Notes: generated by a model not told the origin, from the letters alone. Counted from the stretch's first letter, positions 9,824-24,537 are shown. The stretch: 41,433 bases of DNA from Gammaproteobacteria bacterium (GCA_030834065.1 JAURFX010000003.1:1-41433); one strand, 5' to 3'. Made by a program: numbers and translations.

Positions 9824-10447
9824 ATGAAAATTTATTTAAAATCAATATTTGTATTTGCTATGTTTGGCTGTGTCTCCAATATTATTGACTCAGAAGATCA
9901 TTCTGATCCAACAAATAATTTATTACCTTCTTATATCGACGAATCATGGACTAGCTTCTTTTCTGGGGAAAATCTCAATCAGTTTACTTTTATTGGTGAC
10001 GCGGAGTGGGAGATTATTGATAATTATGTGGAAGCTGTCGATGGATTGCCAAAATTTTTAGTAACCAATTCCGCATTTAGAGATATTGAGCTGTATGCAG
10101 AATTTTGGACTAGCCCAAATGCTAATAGTGGTATTTTTGTCAGATGCCAAGATATACATAACATTGCAGCTGGCACTTGCTATGAAGTTAATATCTTTGA
10201 CCAAAGACCCGATCAAAGATACAGAACCGGAGGCATTGTAAACTTTGCTGAGCCAATGGGATTTCAAAATGCTGCAAATCAATGGAATCAATTTCTGATA
10301 CGCATCGCGGGGGATCACATTGAGGTTTATCTCAATGATGAACTGATGATTGATATGGAGGACGATACTTTCTTTGCTGGGCCCATTGCCTATCAATGGA
10401 GCGCAGGAACTGTACGATTCAGAAATCTCTGGTTTCGAGTTTTATAA
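9824..10447 (+). CDS. DUF1080 (3-keto-disaccharide hydrolase-like) lipoprotein
   Basis: WTSFFSGENL, ANSGIFVR, YEVNIFD, TGGI, NQWN...I...GDHI.V.LN, GPIAYQ, VRFRNL; lipobox-like MFGC. Confidence 0.85.
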   Translation: MKIYLKSIFVFAMFGCVSNIIDSEDHSDPTNNLLPSYIDESWTSFFSGENLNQFTFIGDAEWEIIDNYVEAVDGLPKFLVTNSAFRDIELYAEFWTSPNANSGIFVRCQDIHNIAAGTCYEVNIFDQRPDQRYRTGGIVNFAEPMGFQNAANQWNQFLIRIAGDHIEVYLNDELMIDMEDDTFFAGPIAYQWSAGTVRFRNLWFRVL

Positions 10448-10458
10448 GGTAGGTACAT

Positions 10459-10983
10459 ATACTCAAAGACCAAAAAAATCAATTTGGTATAGTCTCAATA
10501 GCCCTGCATTGGATTGTAGCGATTGCAATACTTATGATACTCCTCTCAGGTAGAGAATTAGCCAACGGAAACTCTAATCTATCCTATGATGAAATTTTAC
10601 TTGTACATGCTCGAGTAGCATATTTAGTATTGCCTTTTTTTCTTTTCAGGTTCCATTGGAGGCTAAGGCAGGGCTATCCAAAATTTACAATTGCAAAGAA
10701 GTTGAGTCATATTATTCCTCCTTTTCAATACCTTATCTTGATAAGTATATTTTTTAGCTATTTATCCTGCTACTTCATCCTAAATATAGATACAAATTTA
10801 TGGTATTTAGAGCAGGAGAATTTAGCGAGCATGAACTCGGAAATATCGATTCATACCTTTGTTGCGAAGACTGCCTTTTTATTAATAATCATCCATATCA
10901 TAGCTGCAAGCATACAGATCCTATTTGCAAAGAATGTAAATGCACGTAGGATGATATCATTGCCTGATAATGAAAAAACTTAG
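10459..10983 (+). CDS. cytochrome b561 (YceJ/CybB-like) di-heme membrane protein
   Basis: The frame is open upstream of the called ATG (10534) and gives LKDQKNQFGIVSIALHWIVA, a typical N-terminus with the first His. Further His residues in VHARV, IHTF, IHIIAA; C-terminal RRMI. The start appears to be ATA at 10459. Confidence 0.75.
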   Translation: MLKDQKNQFGIVSIALHWIVAIAILMILLSGRELANGNSNLSYDEILLVHARVAYLVLPFFLFRFHWRLRQGYPKFTIAKKLSHIIPPFQYLILISIFFSYLSCYFILNIDTNLWYLEQENLASMNSEISIHTFVAKTAFLLIIIHIIAASIQILFAKNVNARRMISLPDNEKT

Positions 10984-11452
10984 TTATTGCATCACCTATT
11001 TACTTTTACTATTCTCAACCTCTCTTGCGGCTGAGAAATTAAATTACTTTATAGCCTATACCCAGGAGGAAAATGGCATTGTAATTGAAAATTGGGATGG
11101 TTATGAGCCAACGCTAGGATTAAATTTTTCTCAAATCATCGATTATTGCACCTCTAGTCATTCTAATCATTCAATACCTACTTTTGAGGCCTTTGATTTG
11201 TCTAATCTTCAGATCAATTGCTATGACCGTCATGGGAATGAAATCAATGAAGTACCATTAATTCTAAGTGTAGAGAGCCTGGCAGATATTTTTAACCTGA
11301 ATGGGACAGAGATTTATTTTACTGATAAAAACTATCCTTATATCAGATTATGGGCAGAGTGCATTTATGAAAGATCCGATGGATCAAGATTTACTTTTCC
11401 TATAATTTTACTTAATAATAAAGGCTTTATTTCAAAAATTATCCAACCATGA
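10970..11452 (+). CDS. hypothetical secreted protein
   Basis: 160-aa ORF with a Sec signal peptide (MKKLS...SLAA), overlapping both neighbours. No family recognised. Confidence 0.6.
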   Translation: MKKLSYCITYLLLLFSTSLAAEKLNYFIAYTQEENGIVIENWDGYEPTLGLNFSQIIDYCTSSHSNHSIPTFEAFDLSNLQINCYDRHGNEINEVPLILSVESLADIFNLNGTEIYFTDKNYPYIRLWAECIYERSDGSRFTFPIILLNNKGFISKIIQP

Positions 11453-12444
11453 TACCTGAGTCTGTGCTTGAGAGTTATGACCTTGGCCATTGTTCAATAA
11501 AGACAATCAATACAGGATTGATCAATAAAACCTGGAAATTATCTGCAGCGTCGGGTGATTTTATTTTTCAAAAGATAAATCCTATTTTTCCAGAACAAAT
11601 TCACGAATCGATTCATAAAATCACAAAGATACTTTTGCAAGACGACATTGGCTCTGTTGAAATAATAAGGACTAAAAATGGAGAACTGATCCATAAAGAA
11701 AATGATGAAATTTGGAGGGTTACGAAATATATCTCGGGTGATAATTTTGAGATTACCCCAGATGCTGATTATGCGTTTAGTCTTGGGAAGGGATTGGCTA
11801 AAATGCAAAAATGCCTTCGTAATGTAAAGGTTGGAGTTCCTTTAAGAACAATCAAAGAGACCGATAGGTGCTATGAAGATTTAATTTCTCTTATAAAATT
11901 AAGTCAAGATCACTCGCAAATTAAAACTATTCAAAAGTATGCTGAAGAAATAAGTAAAGAGTATGCGGCCCTTGATCAAAAGTTAGAAATTAATAATAGG
12001 CAAATGATCCATGGGGATCCCAAAATATCTAATGCTATATTTATAAACGGATCACCTGACATTAAAGCTTGGATAGATTTTGATACCATCGCTTTTCAAA
12101 ATCCCTATGACGAAGTTGGAGATGCTATTCGGTCTTGGTGTAATCCAGTTCATGAATCTGATACGGAGAGTCAGCTGGATCAAACATTACTTAAAGCTAC
12201 GCTTGAAGGCATTGTATATTTTGATATCTATAAAGAAATAAACAGTAAATCAGTTATTCAATTTTACACAAAAAAAATAACGCTTCGTTTGGCAATGCGT
12301 TTCTTAACAGATGCAATGACAGAGAATTACTTTTTTTGGGATAAAAGCAAATACAATACACTCTCGGAGCAAAATATTGCAAGAACGCGCGCGCAACTCA
12401 ATTTACTCAAATCAATTGAGTCTGCATTTATGACACTTCTGTGA
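11449..12444 (+). CDS. aminoglycoside phosphotransferase / N-acetylhexosamine-1-kinase-like phosphotransferase
   Basis: GLINKTW, FIFQKIN..F, Brenner motif HGDPKISN, WIDFDT, GDAIRSWCN, RFLTD...YF. Confidence 0.85.
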   Translation: MIPESVLESYDLGHCSIKTINTGLINKTWKLSAASGDFIFQKINPIFPEQIHESIHKITKILLQDDIGSVEIIRTKNGELIHKENDEIWRVTKYISGDNFEITPDADYAFSLGKGLAKMQKCLRNVKVGVPLRTIKETDRCYEDLISLIKLSQDHSQIKTIQKYAEEISKEYAALDQKLEINNRQMIHGDPKISNAIFINGSPDIKAWIDFDTIAFQNPYDEVGDAIRSWCNPVHESDTESQLDQTLLKATLEGIVYFDIYKEINSKSVIQFYTKKITLRLAMRFLTDAMTENYFFWDKSKYNTLSEQNIARTRAQLNLLKSIESAFMTLL

Positions 12445-12472
12445 CAGTAAAAAACTAAAATTCTTATATATT
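12431..12472 (+). promoter_or_regulatory. hemA promoter with TGACA-N6-TGACA direct repeat (HemR-box-like)
   Basis: TGACActtctgTGACA at 12431-12446 has an 11-bp period typical of OmpR/PhoB-family boxes. The second repeat reads GTGACA (-35-like), followed by a TATATA/TATATT -10-like element at 12465-12472. Confidence 0.75.
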
Positions 12473-12481
12473 CAGTGCTCT

Positions 12482-13795
12482 ATGATAAACAATTATCAAA
12501 TTGTTGGTATAACTTGGCGCGATCATCTTCAAGAGGAGATTGAAAAGATCTCATTAAACGAAGAACAGGCGCTTAAAGCCCTGCAGTTATTACAAAAAAA
12601 ATATCAAGTTGAAGAGTGTGCGTATCTTAAAACCTGTAACAGAATTGAGCTCTTTATCTATACAGAAGATTTATCTATACATAAAAACATTAGAAAGATT
12701 TGGCGCGAAATCATAGGTCAATTTCGAATAGCAAAATCTGAAAGCATTCAATTTAGATCGTGGAGAGGAGAAGGAGCGTTTGAGCATCTTTTTATGGTTT
12801 CCTCTGGTCTCGATTCTGCCTCTTTAGGAGAAAGTGAAATTTTATATCAGCTAAAGAAAACAAAAGAATTTGCTCAAAAAAATCACTTGATTGCATCAGA
12901 AATTAACTTCCTGTTTGAGGAGTCATTCAAAGTTGCTGCACAGATTAAGAGAAACACATTACTTAACTCGGGAAAGCAATCCTTATCTGAAATCGCAATA
13001 AATATTTTTATAAAACCAAATCTACCTGACAAAGATTTTAAAATAGGTCTGATTGGCACATCCCCTGTAATTATAAATGCACTCAAGTCACTTCTAGAAA
13101 GAGAATTTAAGCCTACTTTAATTAATAGAACGCTCAAAAATATACAAGATCTAAAAGATAAGTACCCTATTAAGATGATCAGCTTAAATGATCTAAATTC
13201 TGGCAATCATCATTTCGATGTAATCTTATCTGCCACAAGTGCAACAGAGAAAATTATCAATGAAAAATCACTAAAAGCCATATTTATCAATCAAACAAAA
13301 ATTTATATCGATTTAGCAAGCACTCCTGACGTCTCATCAGCTGTATGCAAAAGAAATAACATAAAATATTACTCCTTAGATGATGTGATTGAGAAGGCAA
13401 AATACACGCATCAAATACGTCAGGCAGAAGTAGCAAATGCAAGAGAAATTATTGATAGCTATTTGATTAATTTAAATCAAAAGATTAATGATAAGAAATA
13501 CAACTCAATTTATTCTGCAATACAAAAAAGATATCAATACACCGCCTCAGAGGGCATTAAAAGATTAATTAAAAAAAATGCATTAAAACTTGATCAAAAT
13601 GCTATAAATGAAATTGATATTTGGTGTTCAGCCCTTGCAAGAAGATTTGCTCACATTCCAACCTTAGGCATAAAAGGCTTACTGAATAATGGTCCAGACG
13701 GTTCTGTTGAGGCATTCATTGAGGGTCTTGATGAAAAGTTTCAAACTGAACTAAAGCTCGCAATACTAGAAACCAAAGGCGGCAATCTTGATTAA
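12482..13795 (+). CDS. hemA: glutamyl-tRNA reductase (divergent)
   Basis: TCNRIE catalytic Cys, AFEHLF.VSSGLDS..LGESEI..Q, NRT, SATSA, IDLA. First gene of the hem operon. Confidence 0.88.
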   Translation: MINNYQIVGITWRDHLQEEIEKISLNEEQALKALQLLQKKYQVEECAYLKTCNRIELFIYTEDLSIHKNIRKIWREIIGQFRIAKSESIQFRSWRGEGAFEHLFMVSSGLDSASLGESEILYQLKKTKEFAQKNHLIASEINFLFEESFKVAAQIKRNTLLNSGKQSLSEIAINIFIKPNLPDKDFKIGLIGTSPVIINALKSLLEREFKPTLINRTLKNIQDLKDKYPIKMISLNDLNSGNHHFDVILSATSATEKIINEKSLKAIFINQTKIYIDLASTPDVSSAVCKRNNIKYYSLDDVIEKAKYTHQIRQAEVANAREIIDSYLINLNQKINDKKYNSIYSAIQKRYQYTASEGIKRLIKKNALKLDQNAINEIDIWCSALARRFAHIPTLGIKGLLNNGPDGSVEAFIEGLDEKFQTELKLAILETKGGNLD

Positions 13796-14684
13796 GATAG
13801 GAACCAGAGCCTCGCATTTAGCAAGAACTCAAGCACTTTTAGTTGAGAAAAAACTAAATGATCTTGGTATAGAAACTAAAATAGTCATCATCACAACAGA
13901 AGGTGATAAGAATTTAAATAAGAACTTTTCTGAAATAGGTTCTCAGGGAATATTTGTCAAAGAACTAGAACAGTCATTATTAAAACAAGATATTCATATT
14001 GCTGTACATTCAGCCAAAGACCTTCCAATCCAGATAGATAAAAAATTACAAATTGGCGCCTACCTTAAAAGAGAAGATCCTGCAGATATACTACTTAGCT
14101 ATCATGAGATAAATGAAAATGTATTAAAAAGTAAAAAATTAACTATTGGTACTTCATCAATTCGAAGATCTAAATGGATTAGCCATTTTTATCCTCATAT
14201 CATTGTTGAAGGTCTAAGAGGCAATGTACCCACAAGAATAAAAGCATTAGAAAATATTGATGTAATTATATTAGCTAAAGCAGGCTTGAACCGCTTAGAT
14301 AAGTCTCCTCTGTCTGATAAGCCGAATATCGATTTTAATAAATTTCATATGCATCGACTTGATCCTAATCAATTTGTATCTGCACCTGGTCAAGGTGCCA
14401 TAGCTATTGAATGCTTAAAAGCAAGCAAAGATATACTTGATTCCCTCGATAGAATTAACCATAAAGAAACCCAGACTTGTATCGATCATGAAAGGATAAT
14501 GTTAGGTCACTTAAGTGGTGGTTGCAATGTTCCGCTTGGAGTTTATGTCAAAATGATCAATCAAAATAATTCTTTCGAGATGCATATTGCACATGCATTA
14601 AATAACAAATTTATTAAGAAAACGTTTCAATACAATAAGATAAATCAAGTTGAAGAAAAAATATTACAAGAATTAAAATCATGA
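13788..14684 (+). CDS. hemC: hydroxymethylbilane synthase (porphobilinogen deaminase)
   Basis: IKIGTRAS.LA..Q, T.GD, GIFVKELE, AVHSAKDLP, GTSS.RR, LRGNV.TR, APGQGA, GGCNVPLG. TTG start. Confidence 0.95.
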   Translation: MIKIGTRASHLARTQALLVEKKLNDLGIETKIVIITTEGDKNLNKNFSEIGSQGIFVKELEQSLLKQDIHIAVHSAKDLPIQIDKKLQIGAYLKREDPADILLSYHEINENVLKSKKLTIGTSSIRRSKWISHFYPHIIVEGLRGNVPTRIKALENIDVIILAKAGLNRLDKSPLSDKPNIDFNKFHMHRLDPNQFVSAPGQGAIAIECLKASKDILDSLDRINHKETQTCIDHERIMLGHLSGGCNVPLGVYVKMINQNNSFEMHIAHALNNKFIKKTFQYNKINQVEEKILQELKS

Positions 14685-15403
14685 ACATCAGAGGTAAAAA
14701 AATTCTTATCACCAGAGATAACGAAGGAAATAAAGATTGGCAAGAGAAATTGCGCTCTCTGGGCGCCTTAGTAAAGACTTTGGACTGTATTAGTATTCAT
14801 GAATTTGATATGAATAAAGAGGAGTTAGCTGAGATAAGAAGAATAATCGAAGCTTCACAATATGTGATTTGGACTTCTGCGAGAGGCGTTTTGTATTCAA
14901 GAAAATTTTTTAATGGACAGATCGCTTCGAAGCTCTGTGCCGTAGGTATTCCTACCGCTAAGGAGATAAAAAAATACTTTGGTAATCCTTATTTGATTAG
15001 CCAAGAGATGAATGCAAGAGGACTCAGTCAAATTATTATTAAAAATGAAGACCTTAAAAATAAAAAAATCTTATTACTCTTGGCCATAAATGCCTCAGAT
15101 TTTCTAGAAAAGGAGCTTCAAAATGCAGGCGCCAATGTAAAACGAATTAATATTTATGAAACCAGACCGATAATGCTTAATGATCCAATTTTATTAAGCT
15201 CACTAGATGTTAATCATATTTTTGTTGCTAGCCCAAGTGCAGCGAAGGGCCTAAAAAATAATGTAATTTTCGACTGTTCAGTCAACGTTTACCCTATTGG
15301 AATAACTACAAAAAAAACTTTAGATGAGTATCAAATTAAAACTCAGCCTATACCAAAATACACAGGTCTCGAAGGTCTAATAAATCAATTAAATAATAAT
15401 TAA
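14681..15403 (+). CDS. hemD: uroporphyrinogen-III synthase
   Basis: GKKILITR, WTSARGV, AVG..TA, YET, ASPSA, IG.TT; directly after hemC. Confidence 0.88.
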   Translation: MNIRGKKILITRDNEGNKDWQEKLRSLGALVKTLDCISIHEFDMNKEELAEIRRIIEASQYVIWTSARGVLYSRKFFNGQIASKLCAVGIPTAKEIKKYFGNPYLISQEMNARGLSQIIIKNEDLKNKKILLLLAINASDFLEKELQNAGANVKRINIYETRPIMLNDPILLSSLDVNHIFVASPSAAKGLKNNVIFDCSVNVYPIGITTKKTLDEYQIKTQPIPKYTGLEGLINQLNNN

Positions 15404-15405
15404 CT

Positions 15406-16374
15406 ATGGGTAGAGAATATAGAATCAATCAGGAAATCAGGGATAGCTTAGCTGAAACTTCATTATCGCGCTCAGACCTTATCATGCCCTACTTTGTAAA
15501 TGACTCAAGTCATTCTATACAGATTTCTGCAATGCCTGGAATATTAAATCATTCAATTGCTTCTCTAATTCCAGCTGTTCAAGAGCAGTTAAAATTTGGT
15601 ATCGATTCCATACTTCTCTTCGGAAGTACAGAAAATCAAAAAAATAAAACTAATGACGGTAGCTATGCTTATCACGAAAAAGGCATTACACAGGCAGCGG
15701 TACGCGCTTTAAAAAAAGAATTTGGGAATGACCTTACTATTATCACCGATGTGTGTATATGCTCATACACAAATCATGGTCATTGTGGTGTCACTCAGGG
15801 AGAAAATATTCTTAACGATGAGACCCTTCCTATCCTTGCAAAAATTGCAAAAAGTCACGCAGATGCTGGAGCAGATATCATTTCCCCGTCAGATATGATG
15901 GATAGCAGAGTGCAATTTATCTCAGATTATTTAAAAGAAGAGATTAATCAAAAGATTCCATTATTTAGTTATGCCGCAAAATTTGCCTCTTCTTACTATG
16001 GGCCCTTTAGAGAGGCAGCAGATTCATCGCCGAAATTTGGTGATAGAAAGAGCTATCAAATGGATTACAGAAATTCTAATGAGGCCATGAGCGAGATCAA
16101 GGAAGACCTCGATCAAGGTGCTGATGGAATTATTTTTAAACCTGCTTTAGCTTATTTGGATATCTTAGCTAGGGCAAGCAAAAAATTTGATACTAGAAAG
16201 TTGGCTTATAATGTCTCTGGTGAGTATTCAATGGTAAAGGCAGCGGGCATGAAGGGATGGATTAATGAGAAAGAAATTATTATAGAAAATCTTTTTTGCA
16301 TGAAGAGAGCAGGCGCGACTGACATTATTACTTATCATGCATTAGAAGTTGCAAAAAATAATTGGATCGAATAG
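15406..16374 (+). CDS. hemB: porphobilinogen synthase (ALA dehydratase), Zn-type
   Basis: DVCICSYTNHGHCG Cys triad, SPSDMMD, KFASSYYGPFREAA, GDRKSYQMD, FKPAL.YLD, AYNVSGEY. Confidence 0.97.
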   Translation: MGREYRINQEIRDSLAETSLSRSDLIMPYFVNDSSHSIQISAMPGILNHSIASLIPAVQEQLKFGIDSILLFGSTENQKNKTNDGSYAYHEKGITQAAVRALKKEFGNDLTIITDVCICSYTNHGHCGVTQGENILNDETLPILAKIAKSHADAGADIISPSDMMDSRVQFISDYLKEEINQKIPLFSYAAKFASSYYGPFREAADSSPKFGDRKSYQMDYRNSNEAMSEIKEDLDQGADGIIFKPALAYLDILARASKKFDTRKLAYNVSGEYSMVKAAGMKGWINEKEIIIENLFCMKRAGATDIITYHALEVAKNNWIE

Positions 16375-16376
16375 CA

Positions 16377-17666
16377 ATGCAGATAGAAAAATCTAAAAAA
16401 TTATATGAGCAAGCGTGTAAAGTTATTCCTGCAGGTGTCAGCTCACCGGTAAGGGCCTTCAAAGCTGTGGGTGGCAATCCAATCTACATGAGGTCTGGTC
16501 AGGGTCCCTTTATTAATGATGTGGATGGAAATCAATACCTTGACTTTGTTATGTCATGGGGCCCACTTATACATGGTCATGCCAATCAAAAAATTATTCA
16601 AAAAATAATTGAAGCCGCTCATAATGGGACTTCTTTTGGCACACCTTGTGAGGATGAATTAAACCTTGCAAGGTTTATTGTTGATTCATATAAATCCATA
16701 GATCAAGTACGTTTTGTCTCATCGGGGACAGAAGCAGTCATGAGCGCGATAAGACTGGCTAGAGGTTTCACAGGTCGAGATCTTATTATTAAGTTTGATG
16801 GTTGTTATCATGGACATGTCGATCCCTTGTTGGTTTCTGCCGGTTCTGGCTTGGTTACGCTAGGGAATCCTTCATCTCTGGGAATTCCACACGAAGTTTC
16901 TAAGCAAACTATCTCTCTTCCGCTAAATCGTATTGAACAAGTTAAGAGAGCATTTATTGATTTTAAAGGTCAAATTGCAGCTGTAATCATTGAGCCAATT
17001 CCTGCTAATAACGGCTTATTGCTTCAAACAAAAGAATTTATCTCAGGTCTTAGGGAATTATGTGATGAAAATCATGCATTGTTAATATTTGATGAAGTTA
17101 TCAGCGGCTTTAGGGTCGCTCAGGGAGGGTCCCCAGAGATATTTAACATCAATCCTGATCTTGTAACATTTGGCAAAGTAATTGGAGGAGGGCTGCCCGC
17201 CGGCGCATTTGGCGCTAATAGAGAGATAATGAATCACATTGCACCAAATGGAGGAGTTTACCAAGCAGGGACTTTATCTGGAAATCCATTAGCAATGGCT
17301 GCTGGCTTTGCAAGTCTAAAACTCCTTCAGGATGAAAATAGTTGGGAATATCTTGAAAACTTGGGTTCTTATCTAGAGAAAAAAGTTAAACTCCTGGGCT
17401 TTAATGAAAAATTTAATGTTAGTTTTGTCCGACAAGGTTCCATTTTTTGGTTTGCACTTGATACAAATATACCACCGATTAGATCAGAGGATATTAATGC
17501 TAAATCAGAGAAAAAATACGCTTCGATATTTAATGGCTTACTAAAAAATAAAATATATATCGCTCCCAGTATGTATGAAGTTGGATTTCTATCCACATCA
17601 CACAATAAAGAACATGTAGATCACTTTATTCAATCTTTATATCACTCAATGGAATGTATAAGTTAA
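16377..17666 (+). CDS. hemL: glutamate-1-semialdehyde 2,1-aminomutase
   Basis: PAGVSSPVRAF, SWGPLIHGH, SGTEAVMSAIRLARG, FDGCYHGH, FDEVISGFR, FGKVIGGGLP, YQAGTLSGNP. ATG at 16377 is preferred over TTG at 16362. Confidence 0.97.
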   Translation: MQIEKSKKLYEQACKVIPAGVSSPVRAFKAVGGNPIYMRSGQGPFINDVDGNQYLDFVMSWGPLIHGHANQKIIQKIIEAAHNGTSFGTPCEDELNLARFIVDSYKSIDQVRFVSSGTEAVMSAIRLARGFTGRDLIIKFDGCYHGHVDPLLVSAGSGLVTLGNPSSLGIPHEVSKQTISLPLNRIEQVKRAFIDFKGQIAAVIIEPIPANNGLLLQTKEFISGLRELCDENHALLIFDEVISGFRVAQGGSPEIFNINPDLVTFGKVIGGGLPAGAFGANREIMNHIAPNGGVYQAGTLSGNPLAMAAGFASLKLLQDENSWEYLENLGSYLEKKVKLLGFNEKFNVSFVRQGSIFWFALDTNIPPIRSEDINAKSEKKYASIFNGLLKNKIYIAPSMYEVGFLSTSHNKEHVDHFIQSLYHSMECIS

Positions 17667-18733
17667 GCCAGAGAAATACCTTTAGACTGGAAATTACTTT
17701 TGTAGTTCTTCTGGTGCTTACTTTTGGTCAAGTAATTTGGTGGATTTATGACCAGATACAGTACACAGAGAACATCAATAGTAGCTTACTAAGACAATAC
17801 GAAATTGAAGCAGAACTTCTTGAGAGTCAAAATTCCTCGGACCCTTTAAATATTCGAGACTTCCCTTACCTAACCGAGATCAACGGTGAGATTATGATTA
17901 GTGCAGATGCGCTCGCTAATATCGAGGCCGAGAGAAGCTCAAGAATAAACCGTTATTTTTGGGAAGGAAGTTTCTTTATTGTGGTTATATCGCTATGTAT
18001 TTTAATCATATTCAAAACCATCAGTAAGGATCGAGCTTTGAATCGAAGGCAGCAAAACTTTATTGCCTCTATAAGTCATGAATTAAAAACCCCACTCACC
18101 AGTATGCGTCTTGCCGCCGAGACGATTGGAATAAATAATCAGGATGAGAGATCAATCAGAATGGTAAATCGTATCCTCTCCGAGGGTGATAGATTACTTC
18201 ATTTGATCGAGAATCTACTTGATGCTAATAAGCTTGATGAAAAGAAATTCCAAGTTCAAGTCTCTCAATTTGCTATAAATGGCCTTATTGAAAAAGTTTT
18301 AAATGGTCTTTTTCTTAGAGCTGAAGAATGTGGAATTGAAATTCAAACAATGATTAATACTGATAAGACAATTAATAATGATCCTTTAATTGTGTCCATT
18401 ATCTTGAGAAATATTATTGAAAATGCTGTAAAAGCCTGCGAACAGAGCAATCAAAAGCTTATCAGAGTAGTCGCAAATAGGACTGATGACGGAATTGCAG
18501 TAGAAGTGATAGATTCTGGTATTGGTATCCAAAAGGAAGAAAAAGAAAATATCTTTGATAAGTTTTACCGAGTGGGAGATGAAAAATTACGTACAACTTC
18601 AGGTAGCGGACTTGGTCTCTATATTTGCAGAAAATTAGCAAAACTAACAAATATCTCCATAGAAGTTAGTAGTGAGGGTATGAATCAAGGATCTACCTTT
18701 AAAGTTTCAATAAGGGATATTTCTAATGTCTAA
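17654..18733 (+). CDS. membrane sensor histidine kinase (HisKA), HemK(Leptospira HemKR)-like by position
   Basis: Two TM segments flank a short extracytoplasmic region; H-box SHELKTPL, N-box NIIENAVK, D.GIGI, IFDKFYR, GSGLGL. Confidence 0.92.
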   Translation: MYKLSQRNTFRLEITFVVLLVLTFGQVIWWIYDQIQYTENINSSLLRQYEIEAELLESQNSSDPLNIRDFPYLTEINGEIMISADALANIEAERSSRINRYFWEGSFFIVVISLCILIIFKTISKDRALNRRQQNFIASISHELKTPLTSMRLAAETIGINNQDERSIRMVNRILSEGDRLLHLIENLLDANKLDEKKFQVQVSQFAINGLIEKVLNGLFLRAEECGIEIQTMINTDKTINNDPLIVSIILRNIIENAVKACEQSNQKLIRVVANRTDDGIAVEVIDSGIGIQKEEKENIFDKFYRVGDEKLRTTSGSGLGLYICRKLAKLTNISIEVSSEGMNQGSTFKVSIRDISNV

Positions 18734-19439
18734 TATCTTGGTAGTAGATGATGAAAAGGTCTTGGGCGAAAGTATTAAAGATGCTTTAGCCTCAGAGGGA
18801 TATGAAGTCAAGATCGCATCGAATGGACAAATTGGTTTTGACTTGATCTCTTCTGAGCCTTTTGATCTCATCATATTAGATGTCATGATGCCAGAAATAA
18901 ATGGGATTGATCTTTGCAAGAAAGTCAGAGAAATAAATGTACTTACTCCAATTTTATTTTTGACGGTCAATAATGACCCTGAAGATAGAATATTGGGACT
19001 TGAAGCTGGGGGTGACGATTACCTTGGTAAGCCATTTCACTTAAAAGAATTATTACTTAGAACCAGAAAACTAATTCAAAGAACCCAGTGGTATGCTAGA
19101 ACCAACGATAGTTTTGCATTTGAAGACATTTATATTGATTTTTCAAGTTACCAAATTGAATCTTGGGATAAAAAAATATATAACCTGACCCAGAAGGAAG
19201 CCATGATCCTAAAACTTCTTATTGAAAATGAGGGGGCAACGGTATCTCGCGAAGATATCCTAGAGAAAATTTGGGGTTATGAATCTTATCCCTCTACTCG
19301 AACAATAGATAACTTTATCGTTCGCTTAAGAAAAAGAATCGAACGTAATCCAGAGCAACCTACTCATCTTCATACTATAAGAGGCGTTGGTTATAAATTT
19401 ACTAAAAATCCATTAGAGAATAATGATCCTGAACTATGA
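18726..19439 (+). CDS. OmpR/PhoB-family response regulator, HemR-like by position
   Basis: ILVVDDE, LDVMMPEING, GGDDYLGKPF, wHTH LTQKE...TRTIDNFIVRLRK.IE...TIRGVGY. Confidence 0.93.
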   Translation: MSNILVVDDEKVLGESIKDALASEGYEVKIASNGQIGFDLISSEPFDLIILDVMMPEINGIDLCKKVREINVLTPILFLTVNNDPEDRILGLEAGGDDYLGKPFHLKELLLRTRKLIQRTQWYARTNDSFAFEDIYIDFSSYQIESWDKKIYNLTQKEAMILKLLIENEGATVSREDILEKIWGYESYPSTRTIDNFIVRLRKRIERNPEQPTHLHTIRGVGYKFTKNPLENNDPEL

Positions 19440-20449
19440 ATAATAAAAGACTTTTAAATGCCCTTAACCTCAAAGAAAATGATCATAGACCTATTTGGAT
19501 TATGCGACAAGCGGGTAGATACCTACCTGAATACAGGAAGGTAAGGGAAAAGTATAGCTTTAGAGAGGTCTCAGAAACACCCGAACTTGCAGCAGAGGTT
19601 ACTCTTCAGCCACTCAAAAGATTTGAATTCGATGCCTCTATCATATTTGCAGATATCATTACTCCACTTAAGGCTATGAATATAAATTTTGATTTTAGTC
19701 CTGGCCCTATCATTGAAAATCCAATCAATAACCCAAGACAAATTGATGCCCTACCTGATAAATTTTATGAAGTTGCCCCAGAGGTGCAGGCATCTTTAAA
19801 ATTAGTTAAATCTGAATTAAAGTCCCACCAAACACTTATTGGTTTTGGTGGTGCACCCTGGACCTTAGCTGCCTACCTTATCCAAGGAAAAGGACAAAAA
19901 GACTTTCCCGCAATAAGGCGCTTTGCGTCTGAACACCCTGAGTCTCTTCAGAGCCTTTTAACTAAACTCAGCGATCTAAGTATCCAGTACTTTAAAGAAC
20001 AAATTGATTCTGGAGCAGAGGTTATTCAAATTTTTGACTCTTGGGCTGGTTTGCTTTCTATCAAGGATTGGCAAACATGGATACAACCCCATTTACTTCA
20101 TATTGTTAGCGCTCTTAAGGCATCTAATATCCCAGTAATTCTATTTCTACAAAATGCAAATCATTTGGTTGAGTATTACTGCGAACTTCCAATCAGTGGA
20201 ATCGGTGTCGATTGGAGAGTTGATTTATCAAAACTGCAATCAAAATTAAAAGATCATATAGCTGTTCAGGGCAACTTAGACCCAGCTATTCTGCTTGCAG
20301 GACCAGAAATTACAAAAAAGTATGCTATAAATTTACTTAACAGTATCGATCCTAAGGGGCATATCATGAATTTAGGTCATGGTATTTTACCTAACACTCC
20401 CATCGAGAGTGTTCATGCACTAATTGAAGTAATTAAAAATGAGAGATAA
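19436..20449 (+). CDS. hemE: uroporphyrinogen decarboxylase
   Basis: PIWIMRQAGRYLPEY, IIFADI, GFGGAPWTLA.Y, QIFDSW, VQGNLDP, NLGHGI.P. Confidence 0.97.
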   Translation: MNNKRLLNALNLKENDHRPIWIMRQAGRYLPEYRKVREKYSFREVSETPELAAEVTLQPLKRFEFDASIIFADIITPLKAMNINFDFSPGPIIENPINNPRQIDALPDKFYEVAPEVQASLKLVKSELKSHQTLIGFGGAPWTLAAYLIQGKGQKDFPAIRRFASEHPESLQSLLTKLSDLSIQYFKEQIDSGAEVIQIFDSWAGLLSIKDWQTWIQPHLLHIVSALKASNIPVILFLQNANHLVEYYCELPISGIGVDWRVDLSKLQSKLKDHIAVQGNLDPAILLAGPEITKKYAINLLNSIDPKGHIMNLGHGILPNTPIESVHALIEVIKNER

Positions 20450-20452
20450 GAC

Positions 20453-21166
20453 ATGAAAATTTCAGAAACTACAGGACAAGTTGATCTAAGTGAAAAAGGT
20501 CTCAATCAAGGCCAATTGATCTCTCTTGACCGAAGATTATTTATGAAATTTAATGCCTTCTCAGGGCGAATTGACGAAAAAGAAATTATTAAAAAATGTA
20601 GTGAAATTAATGGTGTTATTTATAGAGACATTAATGATCCAAATGGTATCGGTCTTCTTATTCTTAGCGAAGACCCTGCCGAATTTATCAAGATCAATCA
20701 AGAAGTCTTATCTTTGCCACCATTCTCTGATCTTCAGCATAAGCATGAATTTGATATGCTTGGTAGGACTTACTCGATTGGATATGAAAATGATCTCGAG
20801 GAAGTTCTTATAAATAAACCCAAAAATAAAATAAAGGATCCAAATTTTAAATGGTGTGTATGGTACCCACTAAGACGTGAAAAAAAGTTTTATGTACTTC
20901 CAGCTGACAAGCAAAAAAAGATCCTTGGTGAGCATGGCAATCTTGCTAAGCGCTATGGCTATGCTGGTCTTGCCGTGGATATCCGTCTAGCCTGTCATGG
21001 TCTTGATAAACAAGATAATGATTTTGTAATTGGGCTGCTTGGGCCTGATCTCCATCCCTTATCTGCAGTCGTTCAAGAGATGCGACAAACGGAGCAAACA
21101 GCTCACTACCTAGAAAGTTTAGGTCCCTTTTTTATTGGCTTAAAAATTTGGGAGAATATCTCATAA
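20453..21166 (+). CDS. chdC: chlorite dismutase-family protein, probable coproheme decarboxylase (ChdC/HemQ)
   Basis: WYPLRR (YPxxK/R catalytic-Tyr motif), ILGEHG proximal His, GLD..D.DFVI, VQEMR, GPFFIG. Located between hemE and the ferrochelatase. Confidence 0.75.
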   Translation: MKISETTGQVDLSEKGLNQGQLISLDRRLFMKFNAFSGRIDEKEIIKKCSEINGVIYRDINDPNGIGLLILSEDPAEFIKINQEVLSLPPFSDLQHKHEFDMLGRTYSIGYENDLEEVLINKPKNKIKDPNFKWCVWYPLRREKKFYVLPADKQKKILGEHGNLAKRYGYAGLAVDIRLACHGLDKQDNDFVIGLLGPDLHPLSAVVQEMRQTEQTAHYLESLGPFFIGLKIWENIS

Positions 21167-22200
21167 TGCATGAGTATGATTCTCTCTTGATTCTCTCTTT
21201 TGGTGGGCCCGAGGGTAAAGAAGATGTCTTGCCATTTCTAAGAAATGTACTTAAAGGTATTCCCGTCAAAGATGAAACCTATGAAGAAATTCAAGAGCGT
21301 TATGATCTATTTGATGGAGTATCACCTATCAATGCCAATACTAGGCTATTCATCGATACCTTATCAAAAGCCCTCAAATTAAAAAGAATCATGCTCCCCA
21401 TATACTGGGGTAATCGAAATTGGCATCCAATGCTCAGTGATACGATGCAAAAAATGAAAGAGGATGGAAGAAAAAAAACACTTGTATTTGTTACAAGTAT
21501 TTTTAGTTCTTATAGCGGATGCAGAAAATACCGCGAGGATCTCTATGAATCAAGCGCAACCATTGAGCATTCGATAGAGTTCGATAAAATCAGAAATGGG
21601 TATAATCATCCTGGCTTTATTAAGGGAATAGCAAGTTGCATTAATGAAACAATCAAAAATAACAATCTGAGCAAAGAAACCCAAGTATTTTTTACCGCAC
21701 ATAGTTTGCCAATCTCAATGGCAGAAAAAACAGAATACAAAAATCAACTCCTTGATAGCTGTCAATTGGTCGCAAATGAACTTGAGTTAAAAAATTGGAA
21801 GCTATGCTACCAGAGTAACAACGCATCTTATGGAAATAAATGGTTAGAGCCAACGATTGAAGATGAAATAGTAGCTATGGGCCAAGCACCTACAAAAGAT
21901 TGCATTGTAATGCCTATCGGATTTGTATGTGATCATATGGAAGTTGTACTTGATCTTGATATTGATGCAAAAAATATTGCTTTGCAGAATGATGTAAACC
22001 TTTACAGGGCGCCAACACTTGGTATTAACGAAAACTTTATTGATATGGTGGTAGATCTTATTGACGAAAGAATGCAAAAAAGAGAAGAAAAAAAGTTTCT
22101 AGGCGAAAGAGGCCCTAATCACAATCAATGTCCAATAAACTGCTGCCTCTCAGGTAGGCCAGGAAATCCAAAGCCTTCACTATGTGGTGAAGCTAGCTAA
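21166..22200 (+). CDS. hemH: ferrochelatase, actinobacterial-type (probable coproporphyrin ferrochelatase CpfC) with C-terminal Cys cluster
   Basis: YD.LL.LSFGGPEG..DV.PFL.NV, GVSPIN, PIYWGNRNWHP, SSYSGCR.YRED, FTAHSLP, YQS, WLEP, PIGFVCDHMEV..DLD, C-terminal CPINCC. TAATG overlap with the upstream stop; GGAG RBS. Confidence 0.93.
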   Translation: MHEYDSLLILSFGGPEGKEDVLPFLRNVLKGIPVKDETYEEIQERYDLFDGVSPINANTRLFIDTLSKALKLKRIMLPIYWGNRNWHPMLSDTMQKMKEDGRKKTLVFVTSIFSSYSGCRKYREDLYESSATIEHSIEFDKIRNGYNHPGFIKGIASCINETIKNNNLSKETQVFFTAHSLPISMAEKTEYKNQLLDSCQLVANELELKNWKLCYQSNNASYGNKWLEPTIEDEIVAMGQAPTKDCIVMPIGFVCDHMEVVLDLDIDAKNIALQNDVNLYRAPTLGINENFIDMVVDLIDERMQKREEKKFLGERGPNHNQCPINCCLSGRPGNPKPSLCGEAS

Positions 22201-22202
22201 AA

Positions 22203-23555
22203 ATGCCTGAAGTATTTGATGTGATTATCATTGGTGCAGGTTTAAGCGGTCTCACCACAACAAAATATCTAAAAGATGCAAATATAAGTACGTTAACACT
22301 TGAGGCATCTGATGTCCCAGGCGGTCGACTAAGATCTATTGAAAATAAAGATAATTCTTTTGAATTTGGAGGTACTTATATCGGACATCATTATCATCGC
22401 TTTCAAAATTTAGCCAAAGAACTCAATTTAACTACTATCGATGTCACTCCATTGATTAGCTTTTTTAAAAAACAAGATCTAGTCATAAATAAACAATTAA
22501 TTCATCAAGATGACTGGGAGAATCATAAGGAAAATACCTTGGATAAAGATCTAAAATCTATCTTGCCCTGGAATCTACATCGCATAATTTTAGAAAAATA
22601 TAACCCTTATAATTCACCTGAAGCATGTCTTACTGAAGGAACTAATGATCAATCGATGAGAGATTGGCTTCAAAGTCTAGGCTTTGATAGCCAACAAATA
22701 AAATATATTTATGGCATGAATTTAAGTTATGGGACTGATGCCGATTCAATTTCCTCGCTGCAATTAATGCATCGAGCGAGTTTTTCTAAAAGACAAAAAT
22801 CAGAGTCTAAAGTTATAGGTTTCACCTTGCTTGAAGGTATGAATGAGCTAGCCAATCGGTATATCAATCATTTTAATTTAAATATATTATTCAAAAATCG
22901 AGTCAATAAGATCGTTAAAGAAAAAGGTCTTTTTTCAGTATCCTGTGAAAATGGAAATGAGTTTAGTGCAGAAAGACTTGTCCTTACTTGTGCCCCATCT
23001 ACACTTAAAAATATAACATTTGATGATTATTCAAAAGAACAAAGGATTCAGTTTGCCTCAGAATTGCAATCCCAACCCATGTTCCAAATTCATTTTAAGC
23101 ATAAAAAGAATTTCTGGGAGCAAGACGGATTCTCTCCCGCTATATTCTCTAATGAATACCTTGGGATGTGCTATCCAGTTAGAAATAAAGTTGATCCCGA
23201 GGAGATCATTGGTTTTACTGCATGGGTTATGGGAAAAAAGGCATTAGATCTTATCAAGCTCTCTCAAAAAGATGCTTGCTCAGTTATCATAAATAATCTA
23301 CAGGAGATAAGACCAAGCATAAAAAATGCAATTGAATTAACTCATCTTAATGCCTGGTCCCATGAAAAAGATTTTTTAGGAGGGTGGACGTATTTCAAGC
23401 CAAACCAGTTCTTAATGTGGCATAAGCTTTTACAGTCAGAGAAAAGTAATATCTTCTTTTCAGGAGAGCATACTTCTATTAGCTCGAGGGGAATTGAGGG
23501 CGCTATTGAGTCTGGAGAGAAGACTGCTAGAGAACTTTTAAATTCTATTCATTAA
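22203..23555 (+). CDS. flavin monoamine oxidase family FAD-dependent oxidoreductase
   Basis: DVIIIGAGLSGL, LEA.D..GGR, EFGGTYI, IFFSGEHT...GIEGAIESG (MAO/LAAO-type C-terminus). Confidence 0.85.
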   Translation: MPEVFDVIIIGAGLSGLTTTKYLKDANISTLTLEASDVPGGRLRSIENKDNSFEFGGTYIGHHYHRFQNLAKELNLTTIDVTPLISFFKKQDLVINKQLIHQDDWENHKENTLDKDLKSILPWNLHRIILEKYNPYNSPEACLTEGTNDQSMRDWLQSLGFDSQQIKYIYGMNLSYGTDADSISSLQLMHRASFSKRQKSESKVIGFTLLEGMNELANRYINHFNLNILFKNRVNKIVKEKGLFSVSCENGNEFSAERLVLTCAPSTLKNITFDDYSKEQRIQFASELQSQPMFQIHFKHKKNFWEQDGFSPAIFSNEYLGMCYPVRNKVDPEEIIGFTAWVMGKKALDLIKLSQKDACSVIINNLQEIRPSIKNAIELTHLNAWSHEKDFLGGWTYFKPNQFLMWHKLLQSEKSNIFFSGEHTSISSRGIEGAIESGEKTARELLNSIH

Positions 23556-24537
23556 AAAGATATCTCTCCGGTATCGGAAGGTCTTTAATCATATTTAAAT
23601 ATTCGTCTCGATAGTCTAAATCGAATATTTTAGCAATTTCATCTTTTTTTAAGTGCGTAGATAATAAACTAATGAAATCTATAAGGTATGCTCTTGTAAT
23701 TATTGACTGAGGAACACCAATCCAGGTTGTGAGCTCTGGAAATAGTTTTCTAATATCTAACACATAAAGATCATTTAAATCATTTGGCTCTATAGCCATT
23801 GAGGCAACAATGCCAACGCCCATGCCCTTTCTAACATAAGTCTTTATTATGTCGGCATCTCTGGCAGTAAAGGCAATCCTTGGGGTTAATCCCTGGCTCT
23901 CAAAAGCTTGCAAAAAGGATGATTGTCCCTGAACGCTAAAAATATAAGTGACTAATGAATGCTTTGATAAAATTTCTAGGTTAATGTTTCTTTTGTCCTT
24001 AGCTAGGGGGTGGCTTTTGGGGACAATAGCTACTCGACTCCACCTATAGATAGGAATTTGAAGAAGTTCATTGTTAAATGCATTAAGTCCACTCGCAATA
24101 ACACAATTGACTCTTTTTTCTCTGACTAACTCATCAATTTGCTCAGAGGTTCCTTGGTGAAGCTCAAGATCAATCAATGGGAATTTATCTGAAAACTGTC
24201 TAATTATATCGGGAAGGACATATCTTGCCTGAGTGTGAGTTGTGCCAATTGATAAAACTCCCCTCTGTTCGCCTTTTGATTCCAAAGCAAAATTTTCAAT
24301 TTCATAAATATCATTTAAGACCCTCTTTGCTCGCTCGTATACTTCTTGTCCAGCATCAGTCAAGGAGGTCAAGCTTTTACCCTTTTTTAAAAATAACTTT
24401 ATCCCAAGTTCTGATTCTAAAAGTTTCAATTGCTTACTTATTCCTGGCTGACTCGTGAAGAGTAATTCTGAAGCTGCGGTTATATTTAGGCCACAGTCAA
24501 CCGTTTGAATAAAATATCGAAGTTGCTTTAACGTCAT
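23545..24537 (-). CDS. cysB: LysR-type regulator CysB/Cbl
   Basis: MTLKQLRY...LNITAASE.LFTSQPGISKQ..LLE.ELG, TTHTQARYVLP, LHQG, FTARDADIIKTYV..G.GVGI.ASMA. Confidence 0.92.
   Translation of the reverse strand: MTLKQLRYFIQTVDCGLNITAASELLFTSQPGISKQLKLLESELGIKLFLKKGKSLTSLTDAGQEVYERAKRVLNDIYEIENFALESKGEQRGVLSIGTTHTQARYVLPDIIRQFSDKFPLIDLELHQGTSEQIDELVREKRVNCVIASGLNAFNNELLQIPIYRWSRVAIVPKSHPLAKDKRNINLEILSKHSLVTYIFSVQGQSSFLQAFESQGLTPRIAFTARDADIIKTYVRKGMGVGIVASMAIEPNDLNDLYVLDIRKLFPELTTWIGVPQSIITRAYLIDFISLLSTHLKKDEIAKIFDLDYRDEYLNMIKDLPIPERYLFNE

Follow-up and report, generated by a model that had tools for sequence, protein, structure and literature searches.

The region considered here lies in a 41,433-nucleotide stretch from a gammaproteobacterial assembly (GCA_030834065.1, JAURFX010000003.1:1-41433), which we refer to at its full length as the window. 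On its plus strand, the open reading frame (ORF) list gives eleven tightly packed genes between 12482 and 23555, nine of which are named by Pfam as heme-synthesis genes. They follow the order hemA-C-D-B-L-[kinase-regulator]-hemE-hemQ-hemH-hemY, and the two genes in brackets, a sensor histidine kinase and an OmpR-type response regulator, are the subject of this work as candidate relatives of the HemKR two-component system (TCS) of Leptospira. hemL overlaps the kinase gene by 13 nucleotides (nt), the kinase gene overlaps the regulator gene by 8 nt, and the regulator gene overlaps hemE by 4 nt in the form of an ATGA stop/start. A sensor and an OmpR-type regulator set between hemL and hemE with these overlaps had been proposed from the sequence alone (the original prediction), and the ORF list and Pfam confirm the arrangement. 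The same prediction had spoken of an upstream box; it is real, an exact TGACA-N6-TGACA direct repeat ahead of hemA (Table 1).

For comparators, 301 genomes of the phylum that includes the 'uncultured Spirochaetaceae bacterium' locus were searched for hemE. Ninety-six matched, and nine of the best 20 hemE loci have a kinase and a regulator directly upstream of hemE. We refer to the spirochaete-phylum comparators as 'Leptospira-type', a label assigned here. One such locus, L116, reads hemA-hemCD-hemB-hemL-kinase (303 amino acids, aa)-regulator (231 aa)-hemE-hemN-hemH-hemY. This is the published gene layout of L. interrogans, in which hklep and rrlep are reported to sit between hemL and hemE, while the L. 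biflexa pair is reported as unlinked (PMC2266917). Two comparator genomes, G143 and G344, also have an unlinked pair; the regulator is 57-60% identical and, counted from the first start codon, the kinase histidine is residue 98, the position published for Hklep. A further locus, L146 (G236:C28:14929-18552), comes from a 2.4-Mb genome of the spirochaete-phylum sample and has the order hemL-kinase-regulator-hemE. In its kinase the outer loop is long and the motifs LWW and ERNRR...SE occur; its regulator has the helix RNIDNFLVKFR, and it sits on a very long branch. By sequence, L146 looks like an intermediate form.

In the window regulator, D52 aligns with the phospho-acceptor, and the recognition helix, from R192 to R202, reads RTIDNFIVRLR, compared with RTIDN[SA]IVRLR in the Leptospira type. 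The pattern RT[IV]DN.[IV].RLR is carried by all 25 gammaproteobacterial and all 11 Leptospira-type members and by 19 of 20 acidobacterial ones; none of the 35 paralogues has it, and their helices mostly follow the wider family's D[VT]H pattern (TVDVHIRRLR in the PhoB-like ones). The window and L116 regulators share 35% identity (E 5e-51). When the former was used as query, the hemE-adjacent regulator was the best match in 3/3 genomes with the L. interrogans-type layout; when the L116 regulator was used as query, the hem-linked regulator was the best match, among up to 97 candidates, in 5/5 genomes of the window's gammaproteobacterial family. A tree of 25 gammaproteobacterial and 12 spirochaete hem-linked regulators, together with 35 paralogues from the same genomes, split both hem-linked groups from all 35 paralogues with a support of 97/94, or 99/99 once one very long row was left out. 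Addition of 20 acidobacterial members gave the joint group a support of 100/97. Quick single-domain trees returned the same grouping with the receiver alone (96 by the Shimodaira-Hasegawa-like approximate likelihood-ratio test, SH-aLRT) and with the DNA-binding domain alone (98), and the regulator signal therefore extends beyond the latter. Among solved structures, the L116 regulator matches 4q7e best (E 9e-40), an entry that we take to be the HemR receiver domain. Judged by these comparisons, the window regulator is a member of the HemR group and carries the HemR recognition helix.

Phosphorylated HemR is reported to bind TGACA[N6]TGACA (PMC11426443). The window's copy of this hem-box ends 35 nt before the hemA ATG and is the sole exact TGACA-N6-TGACA in the window; the TGA stop of the ORF upstream, an APH-like gene, falls inside its second half-site (12442-12444). 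An exact box precedes hemA in 17 of the 18 family loci that cover the region and is the sole box of each ~14-kb locus. The eighteenth, L132, has a one-mismatch box, as does L012. The half-sites are kept while the spacers vary freely between genomes, as is expected of a protein-binding site. An exact box also stands 37 nt before hemA, one base off the window's, in L011, which is a Candidatus Rariloculaceae metagenome-assembled genome (MAG), and in the spirochaete loci L116 and L117; in L116 it reads TGACACTTCTTTGACA. The host assembly (1.17 Mb in 104 contigs, 82.6% complete) contains two exact boxes, the second of which lies inside an Obg-like ORF on contig 19, and among the exact boxes of this incomplete assembly none marks a further target such as hmuO, exbB/exbD or a TonB-dependent receptor, a result that bears on regulon size and not on family membership.

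We then considered how widely the pair is distributed, counting a kinase as a member at E <= 1e-38, or at E <= 1e-55 within the window's own GTDB family. The kinase is present in 23 of 24 other genomes of that family, the miss being a genome 73% complete. Among the family loci from these 23 genomes, 21 have the pair between hemL and hemE; the remaining two are truncated at contig ends and match this order on their intact side. Recurrence on this scale indicates that the arrangement is more than chance. The kinase was found in 0/16 genomes from 16 other families of the same order, a tally that includes the unpublished G039, and in 0/400 further genomes of the phylum, with at most five candidates per genome scored. 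Among the matches listed (80 loci), the closest named kin are a Ca. Rariloculaceae bacterium and an uncultured Pseudomonadales bacterium, both Gammaproteobacteria by NCBI taxonomy, and their sequences fall within the clade of the window's family. L011 and L012 are the true family members in that set, and the others served as outgroups. Outside this phylum, 301 genomes from the phylum to which a Vicinamibacteria MAG belongs (the Acidobacteriota-phylum sample) yielded the kinase in 33 cases, about a tenth. The claim that the pair exists outside spirochaetes thus stands, both on the gammaproteobacterial kin records and on its frequency in the acidobacterial sample.

The acidobacterial genomes mostly carry the pair away from the heme genes, and among 16 long loci, 15 show no hem genes near it. 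The complete order hemA...hemL-kinase-regulator-hemE is found in L210, where an exact box again precedes hemA, and parts of it are found in L184 and L191. Five genomes of the Acidobacteriota phylum with large contigs, in which the pair lies more than 0.1 Mb from hemA, were scanned for the box. Three of the five have an exact box 54-57 nt before hemA (the hemA-side boxes include G751:C1:1368037, G985:C1:4185741 and G935:C1:496034); these three genomes have one to three exact boxes each, and the pair lies from 0.14 to over 1 Mb from the hemA-side box. The other two have no exact box before hemA. A reversed control pattern gave 0-2 matches per acidobacterial genome. The HemR operator is kept at the hemA promoter across three phyla. 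At L194 (G924:C70), an acidobacterial locus with no hem genes around the pair, an exact hem-box occurs at locus position 1234, 264 nt ahead of the kinase gene itself, which may reflect autoregulation.

The kinase has exactly two hydrophobic segments, residues 9-33 and 100-126 (Kyte-Doolittle scale, 19-residue averaging, threshold 1.6), with about 66 residues outside the membrane between them. W29-W30 close the first transmembrane helix (TM1) and W103-E-G-S-F-F108 opens the second (TM2); the translation and the hydrophobicity scan agree here with the WW and WEGSFF boundaries of the original prediction. The longer motif R97-I-N-R100-Y-F-W103-E104-G105-S-F107-F108 runs into TM2. H142 lies ~16 residues past TM2 and T146 four residues later (H-E-x-x-T, in SHELKT), and the N, G1 and G2 boxes are present. 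Pfam matched HisKA and HATPase_c only, with no match to HAMP, PAS or another cytoplasmic sensor domain. The invariant columns of the kinase alignment are W30, E104, G105, F107, H142, N253, N257, D287, G289, G291 and G317-L322. As far as its sequence tells, the kinase amounts to a minimal membrane sensor whose two helices flank a variable outer loop and whose catalytic boxes are intact.

In 26 gammaproteobacterial and five spirochaete kinases, the only positions of the sensor region with at least 90% conservation are W30, R97, E104, G105, F107 and F108. The outer loop ranges from ~25 to 70 residues and varies even inside one family. Since the loop is variable and the conserved residues sit at the outer ends of both helices, signal perception would be placed at the membrane edge rather than in the loop. 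The variability fits the published finding that the periplasmic loop of Hklep is replaceable and its membrane part is needed (PMC2266917). At the other end of the protein, RNA-library contigs from two studies, from relatives ~93-96% identical, have an extra T behind 18719, and P0003, the database protein nearest to the kinase (92% identical), is shorter by two residues and has a different end. The kinase tail therefore varies between strains. NCBIfam and PDB searches returned only generic names for both proteins, and the ESM Atlas returned generic kinase clusters, in which those of 362-364 aa are commonest in Pseudomonadota.

The kinase half of the case is the weaker one. With the L116 kinase as query, the hem-linked kinase is the best match in 5/5 family genomes (up to 75 candidates), and the window and L116 kinases align across both membrane helices, apart from a 32-residue gap in the loop. 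A tree of the kinase core places the gammaproteobacterial and spirochaete groups together with one kinase from a Nitrospina MAG at 89/89. When the two groups were constrained to hold together, the likelihood was slightly better than that of the free tree (approximately unbiased test, p-AU 0.55). Comparison of the sensor regions by hhalign paired RINRYF-WEGSFF...G with RQSRMIKMEGHFF...G at E 3e-4 over 19 columns, compared with 0.23 for a reversed control. A search with the sensor region only, against 1.84 billion representatives, found 141 proteins, 53 of them at E <= 1e-10, nearly all kinases of 350-390 aa or fragments. The proposed kinship with HemKR therefore held for the regulator, through reciprocal searches, trees and recognition helix; for the kinase the match is weak, and the tree is compatible with kinship but not decisive.

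Taken together, we estimate a probability of about 75% that the pair is a HemKR-family two-component system built into the operon it controls. By homology, the kinase would phosphorylate D52 of the regulator, and the phosphorylated regulator would bind both TGACA half-sites as a tandem dimer and set transcription of the whole operon, its own genes included. When 5-aminolevulinate (ALA) or a later tetrapyrrole builds up, the kinase would turn phosphatase via T146, and the operon would be turned down. The signal, be it ALA or a porphyrin, and the sign of regulation are both inferred. Activation at hemA is mildly favoured over repression, because activation is what has been reported for hemA in Leptospira and because the geometry resembles that of PhoB. 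HemK is reported to phosphorylate HemR, and ALA to trigger the phosphatase activity of HemK through T102, a switch known only from L. biflexa (PMC11426443).

Several observations weigh against assigning the pair to the HemKR family. The window kinase is only 23% identical to the hem-linked kinase of L116 (BLASTP, E 2e-17), and as query it retrieved no HemK-type kinase at E <= 1e-18 in five spirochaete-phylum genomes. The free kinase tree does not cleanly unite the two groups, and the Nitrospina MAG kinase that joins them has no hem neighbours. The hhalign probability for the sensor regions is only 40%, and none of the 141 proteins from the sensor-only search is close to the Leptospira type, the best being 31% identical to P0146. 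On the regulator side, the HemR-like regulator is only the third-best match of the window regulator in 2/2 genomes with an unlinked, L. biflexa-type pair, and the window regulator scores 77 bits with the receiver 4q7e, below the CpxR or DrrD receivers. The regulator paralogues were sampled from two lineages only, and the spirochaete regulator group is on a long branch, where the tree software warns of long-branch joins. Two boxes in the assembly are not above chance (1.7-2.7 expected), and the case for the operator thus rests on its position and conservation. Lastly, a consensus promoter scan called no promoter at the hem-box.

The long branch of the spirochaete group also bears on another explanation, in which an ordinary OmpR-type pair, for example one like PhoR/PhoB, was recruited to the operon independently, the likeness to HemKR being convergence or a long-branch artefact. 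It would account for the best named NCBIfam matches, PnpS/PhoR with the kinase and RpaB/MtrA/PhoB with the regulator, none of which comes near its cut-off, and for a kinase core that is closer to many kinases than to the Leptospira-type HemK. However, four independent characters speak against it: the same slot between hemL and hemE, the same 16-nt operator at the same distance from hemA, a recognition helix common to both groups and absent from the 35 paralogues, and the tree of the receiver alone, which the DNA site could not drive and which groups them as well. The reverse searches, in addition, gave the best match in 5/5 genomes. We consider independent recruitment improbable.

Kinship of the pair with HemKR does not by itself settle the logic of control. 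The second half-site (GTGACA; TTGACA in the spirochaete loci) occupies the position expected of a -35 hexamer, and a TAnnnT hexamer follows ~17-20 nt past the box in most aligned loci, L116 having TTGACA-N17-TATAGT. These features would make a promoter at the hem-box with the second half-site as its -35 element. A site on the -35 position could equally well serve repression, which counts against the activation that we favour, as does the report that a Leptospira knockout induces the hem operon under iron limitation, so that the sign at hemA is not simple (PMC11426443). It is possible, though we give it a minority share, that the same family and operator work by another logic, with repression at -35, or with a kinase that senses membrane heme, iron, oxygen or redox, or both. 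The spirochaete TTGACA, followed 17 nt on by TATAGT, resembles a promoter that would work without an activator. The sensor residues that are conserved, arginines and aromatics at the membrane edge, would, as work on HssS has it, suit a tetrapyrrole dissolved in the membrane. HemR is also reported to repress hmuO (PMC11426443). However, hemA has been published as activated by phosphorylated HemR, the phosphatase being triggered by ALA (PMC11426443). In the window itself, GTGACA, a spacer of 18-20 nt and a weak -10 that the promoter scan left uncalled fit dependence on an activator.

Contigs from four metatranscriptome studies match parts of 12300-19500, some of them free of mismatches, and between them they bridge the hemL/kinase, kinase/regulator and regulator/hemE junctions. 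The shares of sequence words from the RNA libraries, 0.06-0.10, are too small to support a claim on habitat, and stretches that no contig matches carry no meaning. We take these contigs as a hint of expression only: they may contain DNA, and they define no single transcript, start site, strand or level. They do cover the pair, which is one reason why we regard it as very improbable that the two genes are a decaying or silent insert without a present role. No evidence for such an insert was found, beyond the fact that the genome is small and that small genomes often shed regulators. Both frames are open, the catalytic and phospho-acceptor residues are all intact, and the genomes of the family that keep the pair (23 of 24) include two others of 1.2-1.6 Mb.

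Table 1. Features of the heme operon and its upstream region in the window
Feature	Coordinates	Strand	Basis
hem-box operator TGACACTTCTGTGACA, direct repeat TGACA-N6-TGACA	12431..12446	+	exact match to published HemR site
putative -10 region (TATATA / TATATT)	12465..12472	+	read from sequence; 18-20 nt past GTGACA half-site
hemA (glutamyl-tRNA reductase), first gene of the operon	12482..13795	+	Pfam GlutR_N, Shikimate_DH, GlutR_dimer
hemC (porphobilinogen deaminase)	13788..14684	+	Pfam Porphobil_deam, Porphobil_deamC
hemD (uroporphyrinogen-III synthase)	14681..15403	+	Pfam HEM4
hemB (ALA dehydratase)	15406..16374	+	Pfam ALAD, E 8e-122
hemL (glutamate-1-semialdehyde aminomutase)	16362..17666	+	Pfam Aminotran_3
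putative HemK-type sensor histidine kinase, 359 aa	17654..18733	+	Pfam HisKA, HATPase_c
HemR-type OmpR/PhoB response regulator, 237 aa	18726..19439	+	Pfam Response_reg, Trans_reg_C
hemE (uroporphyrinogen decarboxylase)	19436..20449	+	Pfam URO-D, E 1e-111
hemQ-like (chlorite-dismutase family; putative coproheme decarboxylase)	20453..21166	+	Pfam Chlor_dismutase 61.7 bits, above cut-off
hemH (ferrochelatase)	21148..22200	+	Pfam Ferrochelatase
hemY-like FAD amine oxidase (copro- or protoporphyrinogen oxidase type), last gene of the operon	22203..23555	+	Pfam Amino_oxidase

HemKR of Leptospira is the known system closest to the pair in its features. Both have a HisKA kinase with two membrane helices, no cytoplasmic sensor domain and an H-E-x-x-T motif, WW and RxNR..EGxFF motifs at the membrane edges, and an OmpR/PhoB-type regulator with the same recognition helix; TGACA-N6-TGACA stands before hemA in both, at 35 nt here and 37 nt there. 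The placement between hemL and hemE is shared with L. interrogans (PMC2266917). The two differ in the outer loop (~66 residues here, 32 in Leptospira HemK), in the position of the histidine (142 here, 98 there), in sequence, with an identity of only 23% for the kinase and 35% for the regulator, and in the host, here a gammaproteobacterium. The operon ends in hemQ-hemH-hemY here and in hemN-hemH-hemY in the spirochaete locus. The open literature that was searched shows HemKR only in Leptospira, which supports the view that a system of this kind had not been described elsewhere; the 2014 paper that defined the hem-box (Morero et al.) lay outside that search. HemKR is called 'a distinct TCS' of Leptospira in a 2024 report that leaves the signal-binding site unidentified (PMC11426443).

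Other systems are more distant. HssRS of Staphylococcus and Bacillus also joins a membrane HisKA kinase to an OmpR-type regulator for heme homeostasis, and HssS is reported to sense heme at the membrane (PMC11237747). However, HssRS activates the HrtAB efflux pump on external heme rather than synthesis genes, uses another operator and lies outside the hem operon. HssS and HssR models were not among the 25 best NCBIfam matches of either protein, and we saw no specific kinship. ChrSA and HrrSA of Corynebacterium are described as two-component systems that respond to heme and adjust heme genes; by that description they are set apart, having another kinase family, sensing heme and not a precursor, and lying outside the hem operon. 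Their regulators are of the NarL type. In PhoR/PhoB, the regulator binds a direct repeat with an 11-bp period that replaces the -35 element, and it autoregulates. The window pair resembles PhoR/PhoB in its OmpR/PhoB-family regulator and promoter geometry, and PhoR/PhoB is among its best named NCBIfam matches. It is unlike PhoR/PhoB in its helix, TIDNFIVRLR as against TVDVHIRRLR in PhoB-like paralogues, and in operator and regulon. Identity with PhoR/PhoB was rejected on the model scores (TIGR02966, 153 bits with a cut-off of 334; TIGR02154, 162 with a cut-off of 296).

The rest of the operon may point to an acidobacterial connection. The hemQ-like protein, although above the Pfam cut-off, falls far below the cut-offs of the NCBIfam HemQ models, and the hemY-like protein gives weak, sub-cut-off matches to the NCBIfam protoporphyrinogen oxidase models. 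The chlorite-dismutase family is present in 29 of 31 genomes of the window's family, and HemF is present in none of the 31. These counts suggest that the family uses the coproporphyrin-dependent branch of heme synthesis, with the proviso that HemN, HemG and HemJ were not searched for. A review ascribes the coproporphyrin pathway to Acidobacteria and, in the main, the classical one to Proteobacteria (PMC10740692). On the regulator tree, an acidobacterial grade (92/89 and 90/81, not starred) encloses the gammaproteobacterial clade (100/99), whereas in a quick kinase tree the gammaproteobacterial and acidobacterial groups are sisters (97). It is plausible that the whole operon passed between Acidobacteriota and the window's family, and the disagreement of the two trees leaves the direction open. 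The window hemL is 53-61% identical to those of family loci, 93% to that of the same-genus locus L120, and 44-46% to those of spirochaete loci.

At locus L125, from genome G017, the operon ends after hemE and a LysR gene comes next. Neither G017 nor G016, assemblies that are 95% and 77% complete, gave a chlorite-dismutase match. The terminal genes of these two may lie elsewhere, or they may be missing from the assemblies. A LysR-type regulator also borders the operon in the window (23545-24537, minus strand), where it is convergent with the operon and shares 11 nt with the end of the hemY-like gene; homologues 54-55% identical lie beside the operon in L125, L132 and L139. It may be a second regulator of heme genes, or unrelated.

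On the other side, the APH-family phosphotransferase-like gene (Pfam APH; 11449-12444, plus strand) terminates within the hem-box. A homologue lies directly upstream of hemA in 17 of 23 family loci, 26-36% identical in general and 86% in the same-genus L120. Farther upstream are a cytochrome b561-family ORF (10534-10983, plus strand) and an ORF without a Pfam match (10970-11452, plus strand), both of which were found, among the compared loci, only in L120. No terminator was found in 10300-12600. The remainder of the window is ordinary chromosome, with alaS, recX, recA, aspS, clpB, bamD, nadE, sucCD and a TctABC transporter.

These observations can be drawn into a wider picture, which we put forward as tentative. 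HemKR might be an old heme-feedback module of several phyla with its home range in Acidobacteriota, from which one marine-type gammaproteobacterial family would have taken a whole acidobacterial-style, coproporphyrin-type operon complete with sensor, regulator and operator, replacing the classical proteobacterial terminal steps. W30, R97, R100, E104-G105 and F107-F108, the few positions kept from Acidobacteriota to Leptospira, would then bind the signalling tetrapyrrole or ALA. Whatever the history, a proteobacterial family that apparently uses the coproporphyrin branch of heme synthesis is brought to notice. What was a system of a single genus becomes a comparative data set, in which the loop can be set aside and mutagenesis can be aimed at a few membrane-edge residues, and the new members offer harmless versions, possibly cultivable or open to heterologous tests, of a system that has otherwise been studied in a genus of pathogens. 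Across phyla the hemA operator persists, with the pair close to hem genes or far from them. A heme feedback circuit of the HemKR type would thus not be confined to spirochaetes, and the kind would be much wider than its name suggests.

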